The position numbers and the translations under genes are program-made. Positions 5,444-11,812 of a stretch of 64,000 nucleotides of DNA are shown here, in pieces. How positions within the stretch are numbered: position 1 is the first letter of the stretch; each line of letters starts with the position of its first letter. This stretch comes from Magnetococcales bacterium. GTDB taxonomy: Bacteria > Pseudomonadota > Magnetococcia > Magnetococcales > UBA8363. The notes beneath the pieces are model-generated. The model saw only the letters and a program-made list of their open reading frames with translations, ran no database searches and had not been told where the DNA came from. The stretch spans positions 12,374 to 76,373 of the forward strand of contig JADFZF010000001.1 in assembly GCA_015232645.1 (NCBI GenBank), read 5' to 3'.

Positions 5444-7843
5444 CTACTCGGAACTGTCGGTCGGAACAATGGCTTTTCTCTCCAATGCCGGAGAATCGGG
5501 CTTTGGCGGCGCCAGGATCGGTTTTTGAGAATCATTCCCCTTATCAATCTCTTCCAAAAGCTCCCTCATACTGGCTTCCCCGTCCTGCCTGCTCGTTCCC
5601 CTCATGACCAAGGAATCAAACTCCACCACCCCTGGTACAATATTTTGTTGAAATTCTGTAAGGCCCAGATGCGAGCGTCGTTCCTCCCCTTCTTCTTTCA
5701 ACTGTTGAAAAATGCGACCATCATCTTCATCATCAAAAGCATTCCCACCTACTCTCCGACGTGCCTTATCCATCTCTTTGGTCAAATCAGCAAGTTTGTT
5801 TAGATCACCCTGATTTTCTGCCTCAAGGAACGCTTGGTTCTGCTGAATCACCGTAGCTTTGGCCGAGCGCTGACTTTCTAAAACTTTTAACTGTGTCTCA
5901 AGATTTAGCTCCGATTCCATCCCGAGCTTTTTCAATATTTCAGATGGGCTTAATCTGAAATTAGCGATCTCAATCTTCATTCCAAATCGTTTGCTGATTT
6001 CCTCAGAAGCTTTATGATTAATAAATGTTTCCAACATCTCACGGTGTTTTGCGGATGTAATAGTTAGCTGGTCAGGTTTCCGATTGACCAGCTCAGCGGT
6101 CAAAAAGCTCACAAAATAATTTACAATATCAGATAATTGGAACGAATGCTGTTTGATTCTCTCCCAGCCATTTTCATGGACACCCGTCACCCATAAATTT
6201 CCGCAGTAGCAATAAGGTTTACCGTGACCCCTTAAATCGACAATAAATTCTTCCGGTTTTGACGCCCCTATCATTTTTTGGATGTGGTCCACCATTTGAT
6301 TGGGAGCGGGGGATACCGTGACGTTTTGCACCTGCGCGAACAGGGAATCCTCCAATTTTCTTTTGATAGCTTCCTGAAGCTGACCCTGAAGGGTTACTTC
6401 CCTTACGGAATCAGTAAAACGCATGAATACAGTTTCTGGATCCTGATGATGGAGAATGTTTTCCAAGGCGGCTCGGCTGGCCGTTTCCATGATAGATAAA
6501 ATATTTTCTTGTCGATCAAGGAAATCTTTTATTTTCATTAAATCTGGAATGGAAAGTGTGGCGGCAACGTTCAGATTAACAGTCAGGCCTGTCTCTTTGG
6601 TGGGAAGATTCTGAAATAAGAACGGATAAGTCTTTAATTCCCTATAGGAATTTTCCTTCATGATGGGACGGCTGATCAAGACCTTGACGGCACAACCGAC
6701 TCGTGTTGCTTCCTCAGCTAATTTGGATTCGATCTTTTTTCTCAGTTCTTCAAATTCCAGTAGGATTTCTAGATAGCTCCACTCAAATATGGCATCCTTT
6801 ATGGTCCGAGTCAGAGTTTCCCTGGCCCATATCTGAATATCCAGAGCCCCCCTGCTCCGGTACTTAGCAATATCCTCCACACGCAGCTGCAAGTGGTTAT
6901 CAATGGTAATCGGGTTGGGATACCCAAATGGGGTATGCTCAAATTTAAAGGAGCAATAGACATCTTTAGGGAAACCATCTACTTTATCGGCCCTGACTAT
7001 AAAACGGCCAAGTACCCGGCCAACTTTCCGAAGACGAGCTAGCAACAATTCACGCAGCTTGGAGGTAAGCCCAGACTCATCAAATCCCTTAAAAAATTCA
7101 TTAACACTGACGGTATCCCGGCAAAAAGCCTTGACCATTTTGGAAACGATCTCGGGCAATTGGTCAACCTGTTTATATCGCATGAGCGCTGTTATCCGAT
7201 TGTCCGGATCCACATTCAGATCCGCCACTATGATAACGTTAAAAGCATCTGTCGCATCCTTGAGGTGGACCGGGATGTGCAAATCGGTAATATGAAAAGT
7301 GGCTAGGTCAGACTCACCCTCCAGGTGAATCCGCACGCTCAAAAACGCCCTCATTTCCGTTTTGGCGGACTCTTGAATAGAGTCTGCCAAGCGTTGCCTC
7401 TCTTCCTTAATATTTTGGAAAAACTTGGAGACCTTTTTACCGAGATACTCATTCTTATCCAAATAATCCTGAACATAAACATCAATTCGAGCGTTAAGCT
7501 GGGTCAGAGGGGGAGCCTCCCCCGCCACTGCGGCAGCAAACATCCCTTCATAACCCTTGGGGCAGACGATCCGATAACTTGGATAAATTCGAACTTCCGT
7601 ATCATTGGAATAGTCAGCTATCGTCACTATGTTACCCTTGCATTGCGCAGTGTGACGCGCAGAGGAACTATTTCCGACAATATAAAAAATATGATGTTTA
7701 CGCCTCAATAATGGCAGTGGCGGTTGAAGGGTATATTGACCGGTCCGAATATCCACCGTGACCAAGACCTGACCGGGCTCTGTTTTAGCCGGGATGTTAT
7801 CAACCCTCCGAATCACATTGTCCAAGTCACATTCGTCCATCAT
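5444..7843 (-). CDS. Hypothetical 799-aa protein: about five tandem SPFH/Band-7-like modules, a coiled coil and an acidic disordered tail (third gene of the TIR operon)
   Basis: Long uninterrupted ORF in low-GC DNA with an SD-like GGGAG 9-12 nt upstream of the ATG. There is no TM segment. Each repeated module ends in an amphipathic helix followed by a G-x-hydrophobic strand (for example LRKKIESKLAEEATRVGCAVKVLISRP and INHKASEEISKRFGMKIEIANFRLSP). The fold assignment is by eye only. Confidence 0.75.
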   Translation of the reverse strand: MMDECDLDNVIRRVDNIPAKTEPGQVLVTVDIRTGQYTLQPPLPLLRRKHHIFYIVGNSSSARHTAQCKGNIVTIADYSNDTEVRIYPSYRIVCPKGYEGMFAAAVAGEAPPLTQLNARIDVYVQDYLDKNEYLGKKVSKFFQNIKEERQRLADSIQESAKTEMRAFLSVRIHLEGESDLATFHITDLHIPVHLKDATDAFNVIIVADLNVDPDNRITALMRYKQVDQLPEIVSKMVKAFCRDTVSVNEFFKGFDESGLTSKLRELLLARLRKVGRVLGRFIVRADKVDGFPKDVYCSFKFEHTPFGYPNPITIDNHLQLRVEDIAKYRSRGALDIQIWARETLTRTIKDAIFEWSYLEILLEFEELRKKIESKLAEEATRVGCAVKVLISRPIMKENSYRELKTYPFLFQNLPTKETGLTVNLNVAATLSIPDLMKIKDFLDRQENILSIMETASRAALENILHHQDPETVFMRFTDSVREVTLQGQLQEAIKRKLEDSLFAQVQNVTVSPAPNQMVDHIQKMIGASKPEEFIVDLRGHGKPYCYCGNLWVTGVHENGWERIKQHSFQLSDIVNYFVSFLTAELVNRKPDQLTITSAKHREMLETFINHKASEEISKRFGMKIEIANFRLSPSEILKKLGMESELNLETQLKVLESQRSAKATVIQQNQAFLEAENQGDLNKLADLTKEMDKARRRVGGNAFDDEDDGRIFQQLKEEGEERRSHLGLTEFQQNIVPGVVEFDSLVMRGTSRQDGEASMRELLEEIDKGNDSQKPILAPPKPDSPALERKAIVPTDSSE

Positions 7844-7921
7844 ATCAAGGCTCCCAGGCAGCGTGTTTTGCTGACAACAACTTTTTGCAGTAAATTTACG
7901 TTAGTCAAATATTCGGCTCGG

Positions 7922-10703: not shown

Positions 10704-11402
10704 TCAGAATAAACGGGATGAACTCATTCTGAGTGCCAAATCTCTCCAATTGATGCCCTCAGGCATGGGAACCTTGAGACGTCTGCAAAGCCCGGCCCCT
10801 AATTCCTTTAGCCCACCCCGATCATCAAGATTAACGCTGGCTCGCAACTGGTATGGAAGAGGTAACCCGCTCGGTGTCAAGCCCCCGTGACATAAAAAAA
10901 TAATAGGAATGCCCCGAGACCAAGCATATCCAACTTCAAAATTGATCCAATGCCGCTGAAACGTGTCGTGATCGGCTAACACTAAGAAAATCAGTACACT
11001 TGAAAGGGCATTTTCCAATTTTACCAGCCAGTTATCTCCAAAATCGACGCTTTCAGGAGATGAAAAAATAAATACATTATAACCCGGAACTATAATTTCG
11101 ATAATTTCCTTCATAGAAATTGCCAACGATGAATCCTGTTGGGAATAGCTAATAAACAGAGTAAAATCTGCTCTCTCGGAAGACTGAATGGCTCCCGCGG
11201 CTTGATGAACCTGGGAGGTCTTCCCAGAAGGCAACGGTCCGAGTTGACATTCAAGCAAATCAATATCCTGCGGCAGGTGGTTTTCCATGGAATGGCCAAT
11301 ATCGGATGCGACCTGGTTGACACGAACAGCTCCGCCCGCCTGGATTACTACACTGCCAGGAGCCGTTGCCTGGCCCCTTTGAATAATGTTTTTTTTTGCC
11401 AT
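10704..11402 (-). CDS. TIR-domain protein with a short N-terminal pairing motif (first gene of the operon)
   Basis: TIR-type signature FTLFISYSQQD ... NVFIFSS ... DNWLVKLENALSSVLIFLVLADHDTFQRHWINFEVGYAW. The preferred start is the ATG at 11402 (MAKKNIIQRG), which is preceded by GGGGGAAG. The ORF track extends to 11426. Confidence 0.8.
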   Translation of the reverse strand: MAKKNIIQRGQATAPGSVVIQAGGAVRVNQVASDIGHSMENHLPQDIDLLECQLGPLPSGKTSQVHQAAGAIQSSERADFTLFISYSQQDSSLAISMKEIIEIIVPGYNVFIFSSPESVDFGDNWLVKLENALSSVLIFLVLADHDTFQRHWINFEVGYAWSRGIPIIFLCHGGLTPSGLPLPYQLRASVNLDDRGGLKELGAGLCRRLKVPMPEGINWRDLALRMSSSRLF

Positions 11403-11812
11403 GGCACTTCCCCCGCAATACGTCACGCGATGATCACTTTTGCTGCCGAGATGACCCTCATACGGTTTAGCCTATGGTATATTTTATTCTAGTTATATTC
11501 AAGATATTTTTTTGATACACGCATGTTTATTTTTCACCAATTGGATATAATATGTTATTTACCTTGGAAATGTAAAAATCTAATTCTTATGTAATACATT
11601 AAATGTTATATTATTCAATAATCAGTCCGTATTGTGGCGCGAAAAGCTAACGCAACGTACAATGTTCTTGCTTCAGTCATTATGTCGGCCACCAAGTATC
11701 CAGCCGTCCAAACAAGATGGTTAGCCCAAAGGAGGCTGAAACGAAAATTGCTTCCCTCTTGGCTGATGAAGGGGCCTTATTCCAATTCCTATTGACTCGG
11801 CAGCGATGGCTG

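Follow-up and report, generated by a model that had tools for sequence, protein, structure and literature searches.

A minus-strand operon of three genes in a 64-kb stretch of DNA from a Magnetococcales metagenome-assembled genome (MAG; contig JADFZF010000001.1; the whole stretch is called the window here) is probably a horizontally acquired, minimal member of a conserved, unnamed family of conflict systems, most likely one with an anti-phage or abortive-infection role. Gene 1 (g1) encodes a TIR protein, and genes 2 and 3 (g2 and g3) encode two large proteins whose families we call G2 and G3. Our reading is based on sequence comparison: the family has a constant G2-G3 core, a swappable enzymatic gene, segments shared specifically between cognate proteins, and, in relatives, a ZorAB-like pair; its distribution is patchy, and the operon has an island-like composition. 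The core pair had no naming match in Pfam, PADLOC, or NCBIfam, and none was found in the literature searched, in agreement with a preliminary description of the operon, made from the sequence alone, that had called its architecture unlike known systems.

The G2-G3 core and the genes around it

Searched by word index, 5.8 billion proteins yielded nothing beyond self-matches for all three proteins (those of the operon proteins carried locus tags HQL73_00085 and HQL73_00090), and g3 had no record in an exact look-up on contigs. This apparent orphan status is an artifact of search sensitivity, because relatives exist at E values of 1e-35 (TIR), 1e-33 (G2), and 1e-86 (G3). An exhaustive HMMER search with g2 against 1.84 billion cluster representatives recovered 137 relatives at E <= 1e-3, including 42 at E <= 1e-10. 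These relatives are 700 to 1000 amino acids (aa) long, at 22 to 27% identity, and their alignment has conserved motifs along its full length, all of which g2 shares. We rejected the possibility that the genes are chance open reading frames (ORFs), as all three are conserved in many unrelated contigs.

We scanned GTDB species genomes with a G2 sub-alignment (23 loci) and metagenomes with G3 as the anchor (35 loci), for a total of 58 loci. Hosts of the G2-anchored loci include Parabeggiatoa, Thiomargarita, filamentous cyanobacteria, Acidobacteriota, and a Desulfobulbus MAG, so that the host groups are Gammaproteobacteria, Cyanobacteriota, Acidobacteriota, and Desulfobacterota, plus this Magnetococcales MAG. 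In 21 of the 23 G2-anchored loci, a g3 homolog follows downstream and on the same strand (phmmer E 1e-22 to 1e-61 in 19 and ~1e-4 to 1e-5 in two), and the G3-anchored metagenome loci have a G2 homolog upstream wherever upstream DNA is present. Both genes are present in 49 of the 58 loci; eight have only G3, all at a contig edge, and one has only G2, on a 4.9-kb contig. Thus, G2 and G3 form a conserved core pair, since they co-occur in nearly all loci and the exceptions sit at contig edges or on a short contig. The gap between the two genes is mostly -10 to +43 nucleotides (nt).

The gene directly upstream of G2 varies and encodes a Trypsin_2, CHAT, Peptidase_C14, PNP_UDP_1, FGE-sulfatase, EAD1, or TIR_2 protein. 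Among classified loci, trypsin-like (15), CHAT (13), and caspase (3) genes are the commonest. This slot upstream of G2-G3 holds a swappable enzymatic effector, which in the window is the TIR protein.

The preliminary description had asked whether the three genes are conserved together elsewhere, and they are: all five of the closest G2 relatives (P0004, P0005, P0006, P0007, and P0009) have a G3 gene and a 206- to 225-aa TIR_2 protein in the locus, and in four of them the TIR_2 gene is immediately upstream of G2. The exception, L059 (1881-8205), has the permuted order G3-TIR-132aa-G2, in which a 132-aa ORF separates TIR and G2; its G2 is missing the long disordered N terminus, with the 132-aa ORF in its place. 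Compared with their counterparts in TIR-type loci, g3 is 27 to 29% identical (E 1e-77 to 1e-86) and g2 is 22 to 25% identical (E 1e-14 to 1e-33).

Other loci show further arrangements of the slot. In a metagenomic locus (L038, 1986-5885), G3 is fused at its C terminus to a CHAT protease domain (E 1.2e-24), and L043 and L044 have a gene for a CHAT protein after G3; effectors can therefore be linked to G3 in addition to G2. In Calothrix sp. NIES-2100 (L011, 6954-7514), the slot holds a 186-aa protein made up only of an EAD1 domain (E 1.4e-30) and a tail that resembles the N terminus of its own G2. This protein appears to be a pure adaptor and could recruit EAD1-tagged effectors encoded elsewhere. 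Six Beggiatoa-type loci (L003, L005, L006, L007, L012, and L045) have two small conserved genes (157 aa and ~230 aa) between G2 and G3 and a ~130-aa gene upstream of the trypsin-like gene; these small genes gave no informative Pfam or PADLOC match.

Many relatives also carry a membrane module, which we counted in the 45 loci with enough downstream DNA. A ZorA/ZorB-like pair follows G3 in 22-23 of the 45. Its first gene encodes a 400- to 650-aa MotA_ExbB protein with a coiled-coil tail (PADLOC ZorA3/ZorA1, 2e-11) and its second an OmpA-domain protein (PADLOC ZorB, 2e-15). An ARC6-like IMS-domain protein is present instead in 11 cyanobacterial-type loci, and neither module is present in nine, so about three quarters of the loci carry one. 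Of the TIR-type relatives, all four whose downstream DNA is complete have ZorA/ZorB-like genes directly after G3. One of the TIR-type operons (L064, 1855-16582) has the order TIR-G2-G3-ZorA-like-ZorB-like and lies between hydantoinase genes, while the upstream context of L065 differs and includes an antitoxin-family gene, consistent with a mobile island.

The TIR protein, its shared motif, and the two core proteins

The g1 protein scored just below the Pfam cutoff for TIR_2 (E 8e-6, 26.8 bits; cutoff, 28) and reached 20.8 bits for ThsB_TIR (E 5e-4; cutoff, 21.2). It also matched PADLOC ThsB (E 6.7e-5), NCBIfam ThcB4 (E 8.5e-5, 21.6 bits against 220), and PHROG 29177, a family of unknown function (E 1.9e-20), and NCBI annotation calls it a TIR protein. 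In a HMMER alignment, E164 of g1 (WINFE) is opposite the Glu of the SARM1 WVHKE motif, which we take to be the catalytic E642. E164 is kept in all five TIR orthologs from gene-2/gene-3 loci, and g1 and these orthologs share the conserved block W[IV]NFE.G.AWSRGIP..FLCH. Identity of g1 to four syntenic TIR proteins is 34 to 45% (E 1e-33 to 1e-35), and 27.5% to the TIR protein of L059; the syntenic relatives carry confident precomputed TIR_2 matches. The alignment and this orthology support the earlier assignment of gene 1 as a TIR protein, with an intact putative catalytic Glu. The TIR domain is also 38% identical (E 1e-17) to unannotated Streptococcus agalactiae prophage proteins (PP758848.1 and MK448768.1).

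A short segment near the N terminus of g1 matches one within the N-terminal region of g2: KNIIQRGQATAPGSVVIQAGGAVRV of g1 aligns with NNIIQKGTATGDRPQIFQASKNINI of g2 (BLASTP E 0.015; Smith-Waterman score, 45). Of 5000 shuffles, 26 reached this score, as did a fraction of 0.002 in a second set of 2000 (p ~0.002-0.005), and the cognate pair of the window scores highest both among 6 and among 34 G2 N termini. In two other TIR-type loci, L060 (RDQVQAGRDVHIT and RDQLQAGRDLNIT) and L062 (KIQGEIGRDGII and QIQGNIGRDGIF), none of 2000 shuffles reached the observed score. The shared segment lies at the N terminus of the TIR protein in TIR-type loci and in the tail of the effector elsewhere. This tail is often homologous to a segment in the N terminus of its own G2, for example with 86% identity in L029 (6e-33), 62% in L011 (6e-30), 60% in L015 (7e-26), 51% in L016 (3e-24), and 43% in L009 (4e-14). 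Across 37 effector-G2 pairs, the cognate G2 N terminus was the best match in 17, with ~1 expected by chance. The shared motif points to physical coupling of the effector to its own G2 rather than to a diffusible signal.

By direct count, Q, N, G, V, and I make up 54 to 60% of the motif. Its core signatures (IIQRG and VIQAGG in g1, IIQKG and IFQAS in g2, and QVQAGRD, QIQVGRD, and QLQAGRD in relatives) are close to, and not identical with, the BASS3/RHIM pattern G-phi-Q-phi-G, and the window motif would fit a RHIM/BASS-like element in composition and layout. Cyanobacterial loci instead share a segment of coiled-coil type. Curated EAD families (EAD1 to EAD11 and others) had no significant match in ten G2 N termini, including that of the window; only EAD9 appeared, at 0.016 and 0.62.

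The g2 protein starts with a region rich in G, S, P, and D (residues 1 to 170) that is probably disordered, based on composition. An alpha/beta domain and a long helical region follow (Table 1). At the strand-helix junction of the alpha/beta domain, the family consensus is [E/K][E/K]R-hhhh-S-C-x-D, followed by hhhh-D and hh-C-hh strands, and the window protein reads RRLLVIQCSV. A Walker A motif (GxxxxGK[ST]) is missing at this junction from all 50 aligned family members. Thus, absence of the P loop is a trait of the whole G2 family, and we rejected a lineage-specific erosion in g2. The preliminary description had seen in g2 a STAND protein with an eroded P loop, and the searches did not support that claim: g2 matched no STAND, AAA+, AAA_16, NACHT, or NB-ARC profile, and no P-loop chain appeared in a PDB profile search at E <= 10. 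STAND ancestry is one candidate reading, along the lines of the iSTAND idea of Kaur et al., and a receiver-like or flavodoxin-like domain would explain the sequence just as well.

The most conserved part of the G2 family lies within the helical region (residues 390 to 720), and W458, F520, W692, and W834 are invariant. The helical region is probably an alpha-solenoid; it gave only generic HEAT/ARM-like solenoid matches, with a Foldseek input model of low confidence. Foldseek searches with the low-confidence g2 and g3 models returned generic solenoid or meaningless matches (TM-score <= 0.3), which we discarded as evidence. The single g2 sequence had no match in Pfam, PADLOC, NCBIfam, PHROGs, or PDB sequences, nor did the family alignment in Pfam, PADLOC, or PDB.

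The g3 protein contains about five copies of one module, as supported by profile self-alignment. Aligning the 20-sequence G3 alignment with itself by hhalign placed residues 72-516 onto 191-635, a shift of ~119 residues (probability 93%, E 2.8e-7), with a second register at a shift of ~215 residues. The modules are R1 (72-190), R2 (191-309), R3 (310-428), R4 (429-547), and R5 (548-640). Pairs of them matched at 6e-4 (R1-R2), 2e-4 (R2-R4), 2e-3 (R1-R3 and R3-R4), and 1e-3 (R4-R5), against E values of at least 0.1 for control segments from the N-terminal part and the coiled coil. Self-BLAST of g3 revealed no repeats, and the modules were visible only by profile self-alignment.

The one library match of g3 was to Band_7 (residues 310-386), at 20.1 bits against a Pfam cutoff of 23.6. 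Seven of the 20 G3 members matched Band_7 at E < 0.1 (best E, 2.8e-6); those inspected scored 18.5 to 19.9 bits, all below the gathering threshold, and in them differing modules matched the same part of the profile. Of the five-fold SPFH-like protein proposed earlier, then, the five-fold repetition stands, and the SPFH part corresponds to this sub-threshold match. The G3 family profile matched PDB entries only at its C-terminal helical region, where the matches were designed coiled coils. The g3 sequence gave nothing in PADLOC, NCBIfam, or PHROGs, neither it nor the family alignment gave anything significant against PDB sequences, and no transmembrane segment was predicted in g1, g2, or g3 (maximum 19-residue Kyte-Doolittle hydropathy [KD19] of g3, 1.11). 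The preliminary description had set as a further test whether a housekeeping family would claim gene 2 or 3; none did in the profile searches.

The operon in the window

The basic layout of the operon is as first described: three co-directional minus-strand genes, each with a Shine-Dalgarno-like (SD-like) site. The sites are GGGGGAAG, 4 nt before ATG 11402, for g1; GGAAAGGG, 5 nt before ATG 10690, for g2; and GGGAG, 7 nt before ATG 7843, for g3. The gaps are 13 nt (g1-g2) and 78 nt (g2-g3). Coordinates are collected in Table 1.

Table 1. Features of the three-gene operon and its spacers (positions in the window)
Feature	Position	Strand	Basis and remarks
Gene 1, TIR-domain protein	10704..11426	-	ORF list; 240 aa from GTG 11426; probable start ATG 11402, giving 232 aa (NCBI annotation)
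Gene 2 (G2), core protein, 922 aa	7922..10690	-	ORF list; relatives found by HMMER
Gene 3 (G3), core protein, 799 aa	5444..7843	-	ORF list; homologs beside G2 homologs
TIR domain of gene 1, residues ~89-219	10770..11162	-	HMMER alignment to SARM1 TIR; putative catalytic Glu164 in motif HWINFEVGYAWSRGIPIIFLCH
N-terminal adaptor motif of gene 1, residues 12-36, KNIIQRGQATAPGSVVIQAGGAVRV	11319..11393	-	Two phi-Q-x-G pseudo-repeats, P/G-containing linker
Adaptor motif of gene 2, residues 100-128, LGNNNIIQKGTATGDRPQIFQASKNINI	10307..10393	-	In disordered N terminus; matches gene-1 motif
Alpha/beta domain of gene 2, residues ~180-330	9701..10153	-	Low-confidence AlphaFold2 model with five alternating strands/helices; P-loop junction RRLLVIQCSVAE; hhhhE strand LLVVE
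All-helical C-terminal two thirds of gene 2, residues ~331-922	7925..9700	-	AlphaFold2 secondary structure and family alignment
Five tandem ~119-residue modules of gene 3, residues ~72-640	5924..7630	-	Family profile self-alignment; weak Band_7/SPFH-like signals
Helical coiled-coil-like region of gene 3, residues ~641-770, then disordered tail	5534..5923	-	Low-confidence AlphaFold2 model; E/L/D/Q-rich composition
Upstream AT-rich spacer	11427..11828	.	38% GC; best promoter-like site for operon TTTACA-18-TATTAT, 11576-11547, minus strand
Downstream AT-rich spacer, gene 3 to gshA	4989..5443	.	~455 bp, 34% GC; without ZorA/ZorB-like remnant

By profile annotation, the operon lies between two housekeeping genes, as proposed earlier: a GCS2-type gshA (glutamate-cysteine ligase) and an HTH_1+TOBE modE. 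The low GC content noted at that time was also borne out, with values of 0.469 (g1), 0.482 (g2), and 0.453 (g3) against 0.547-0.585 in gshA, modE, modA, and modB. GC at third codon positions (GC3) is 0.44-0.53 in the operon genes and 0.59-0.69 in the same four genes. Both flanking spacers are AT-rich, as claimed, and the downstream one needs correction, as it is far longer than the ~245 bp given originally. These results support a horizontally acquired three-gene island. Searches around the operon for tRNA genes, flanking direct repeats, integration scars, and integrase remnants gave nothing beyond chance, and promoter-like sites and terminators did not exceed the counts expected from shuffling.

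NCBI annotation starts gene 2 at GTG V257, giving a 666-aa product with no SD-like site; the region concerned is 9920-10690 (minus strand) of the window. The 922-aa model from ATG 10690 fits better, because similarity within the family starts at about residue 155-180, so that the V257 start cuts a conserved domain. The adaptor motif of gene 2 also falls outside the annotated 666-aa product.

Elsewhere in the window (23382-27098, minus strand), a 1238-aa ORF has Sel1 repeats, kinesin-light-chain-like TPRs, and a weak C-terminal CHAT-like region (E 2.7e-5 to a local CHAT profile and 8e-4 to a PDB CHAT protein). It may encode another conflict-type protein on the same contig.

Proposed function and relation to known systems

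The preliminary description had proposed a candidate immune system. The comparative genomics fits this proposal, with the function itself a prediction, and adds three elements that the description lacked: the swappable slot, the ZorA/ZorB-like pair of relatives, and the shared RHIM/BASS-like motif. In the mechanism we propose, G2, together with a G3 that is probably a large oligomeric scaffold, would sense infection or envelope damage. G2 would then oligomerize and gather its short Q/N/G/V/I-rich N-terminal motifs, and the gathered motifs would capture or template the matching motif at the N terminus of the TIR protein. The clustered TIR domains could become active NAD+ hydrolases or producers of a signal nucleotide, which would stop the infected cell. 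In most relatives, the envelope signal would probably come from a membrane module, either a peptidoglycan-anchored ion-channel pair of ZorA/ZorB type or an ARC6-IMS-like membrane protein. The immune role, the oligomerization, the motif-driven TIR activation, and the NADase output are the predicted parts of this scheme.

Several results weigh against a conflict system of this kind. The motif match in the window is modest: in the 34-way comparison, its lead over the best non-cognate G2 is only 0.3 bits, and three of the six TIR-type pairs are not significant. At residues 185-191 (10120-10140, minus strand), the window G2 has QCSV for the family S-C-x-D, retaining the Cys but not the Asp. AlphaFold2 without alignments gave mean predicted local distance difference test (pLDDT) values of 40.8 for g2 and 35.7 for g3, and the models were unusable for the folds of G2 and G3. 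The SPFH likeness of G3 is sub-threshold, and hhalign against a profile of E. coli HflK, HflC, QmcA, and YqiK gave no signal (E 0.15). No relatives were found in plasmids (tblastn with g2 and g3), phages (tblastn with g3 only), or IMG/VR viral contigs (motif scans). Finally, ZorA/ZorB-like genes are absent from the 64 kb of the window, and tblastn found no ZorA/B-like or ARC6-IMS-like remnants in the spacers (best E, 0.38). Because the four complete TIR-type relatives carry ZorA/ZorB-like genes and the window has none, the window copy may be incomplete.

Taken further, such incompleteness would make the operon a decayed, non-working leftover of a five-gene Zorya-like TIR-G2-G3-ZorA-like-ZorB-like system that has lost its membrane sensor, in line with the divergence of the window G2 at S-C-x-D and with a g2-g3 gap wider than the family norm. 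We think this unlikely. None of the three ORFs is broken or shortened, and each is preceded by an SD-like site. The catalytic Glu and the matched motif are still there, no pseudogene remnants were seen in the spacers, and the nine family loci that also lack a membrane module show that the window is not alone in this. Signaling as in Thoeris stands somewhat lower in our estimate. Here, the TIR protein would be the infection sensor, making an ADP-ribose-derived signal, and G2 and/or G3 would be the effectors that the signal activates. The weak ThsB matches of g1 fit such a role, and new Thoeris types with unrelated effectors continue to appear (bioRxiv 10.64898/2025.12.03.692087). However, the arrangement is the reverse of Thoeris logic, because TIR is the variable part of the family and G2-G3 the constant part, with proteases, PNP, FGE-sulfatase, and the EAD1 adaptor filling the same slot; on this ground we rejected a Thoeris variant as the identity of the operon. 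The shared motif also points to physical recruitment, and searches of G2 and G3 in Pfam, PADLOC, and NCBIfam revealed neither a SLOG, Macro, or SIR2 domain nor any other domain known to bind a signal or to kill; both proteins also lack a predicted transmembrane segment.

The least probable of the explanations we weighed is a non-immune one, in which large or multicellular bacteria would use G2-G3 as a cytoplasmic or membrane-proximal scaffold in regulated proteolysis, in the handling of envelope stress, or in developmental cell death, similar to SPFH-protease pairs such as HflK/C-FtsH or stomatin-NfeD. Proteases being the commonest upstream genes, the weak SPFH likeness of G3, the frequent peptidoglycan-linked partners, and hosts that are mostly filamentous or very large bacteria are all in its favor. 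Yet a Magnetococcales host is not known to be multicellular, the distribution is patchy and rare over four phyla, the copies are island-like, and the membrane pair matches Zorya models. Moreover, TIR, PNP, FGE-sulfatase, and EAD1, which occupy the same slot, are domains reported for prokaryotic conflict systems (PMC7159879).

Returning to the reading of the locus as a conflict system, a more specific form of it can be proposed, which we regard as tentative and, in all its parts together, doubtful. In this form, G2-G3 would be the core of a new, NTPase-free immune signalosome, akin in logic to Zorya. An envelope-anchored ZorAB-like stator, or the core alone in minimal versions like that of the window, would trigger the assembly of a cage-like, pentarepeat SPFH-type G3 and a solenoid G2, which would act as the receptor. 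RHIM-like amyloid motifs on G2 would then template the matching motif on a TIR, protease, or nucleosidase effector. In prokaryotes, the system might parallel prion-like signaling of the RHIM or HET-s type, here feeding a TIR NADase.

If the conflict-system reading is true, the family is a new family of defense systems with a two-protein core that has no recognizable NTPase. It would join Zorya-type membrane stators, the swappable effector/adaptor grammar of conflict systems from multicellular bacteria, and RHIM/BASS-like templated signaling, and its TIR-armed subgroup would allow direct testing of motif-driven TIR activation. The more than 60 loci and the alignments assembled here are a starting set for structures and experiments.

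Comparison with known proteins and systems places each part of the family. G3 resembles SPFH/Band 7 proteins (HflK/C, flotillin, and stomatin) in its Band_7 match, which falls on the alpha/beta core of that profile, and in the coiled coil that follows at the C terminus. In known SPFH proteins, the SPFH core together with a C-terminal coiled coil drives ring or cage assembly. G3 differs in that it has five modules in tandem where those proteins have one, it lacks a membrane anchor, and its match is below the Pfam cutoff. Like Avs and bNACHT proteins, G2 is large, has its alpha/beta domain toward the N terminus and a long stretch of helical, repeat-like sequence after it, and is coupled with a death effector. 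Unlike them, it has no Walker A motif, its effector is on a separate polypeptide, and a second core protein, G3, is obligatory. With Thoeris, the operon shares a stand-alone TIR protein of weak ThsB likeness in a small operon; it differs from Thoeris in that TIR is replaceable in the family and there is no ThsA-type partner.

BASS motifs (Dyrka et al. 2020) occur at the terminus of an effector and at the N terminus of the adjacent receptor and are sometimes linked to TIR2 or CHAT; BASS3 has the RHIM-like pattern G-phi-Q-phi-G (bioRxiv 10.1101/2020.01.06.895854). Compared by description, the window motif is like these motifs and the Bab/Agp antiphage pair in being ~20-25 residues long and rich in Q, N, G, V, and I, with pseudo-repeats and a G/P linker. 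The likeness is partial, as G2 is not an NB-ARC or NACHT NLR, the motif of TIR-type loci is at the N terminus rather than the C terminus of the effector, and the cyanobacterial G2-G3 loci use a coiled-coil-type tail.

The EAD-coupled ternary conflict systems (VMAP, iSTAND, and iSTAND2; Kaur, Burroughs, Iyer, and Aravind 2020, 2021) use the same effectors (TIR, trypsin-like, caspase/CHAT, PNP, and FGS) and occur in similar hosts (Beggiatoa-like bacteria and filamentous cyanobacteria), and one G2-G3 locus has a genuine EAD1 domain. In these systems, the "EAD principle" puts the same small module into a core component and the effector encoded beside it, and cognate copies are the most alike (PMC7159879 and PMC8195603); the G2-effector segments follow this principle, the cognate ranking highest in 17 of 37 loci. 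The idea of a STAND-like domain that lacks nucleotide-binding residues was put forward there as iSTAND, and HHpred was needed to link it to STAND (PMC8195603). The EAD systems differ in being built on MoxR AAA+ plus vWA or on GTPases. No MoxR AAA+, vWA, or GTPase gene was found among the scanned representatives of recurrent neighbors of G2-G3, and the window operon consists only of g1 to g3. The Kaur et al. papers do not mention MotA, and Band7 appears in them only as a vWA-fused effector (PMC7159879 and PMC8195603).

Zorya (ZorAB plus ZorCD, ZorE, or ZorFG) is similar to the relatives of the operon in combining a stator-like membrane pair with soluble partners. The window has no ZorA/ZorB-like gene, the gene order differs, and the family adds a swappable effector; we found no Zorya type with a TIR, protease, or PNP effector in the literature searched. 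In type III Zorya, ZorF is DUF3348 and ZorG is DUF2894 (PMC11890865), and neither G2 nor G3 matched these Pfam families or the PADLOC models for ZorC, D, E, F, and G. Among known kinds, the locus is best classed with Zorya-like or EAD/BASS-coupled effector systems; what is new is its undescribed core pair.

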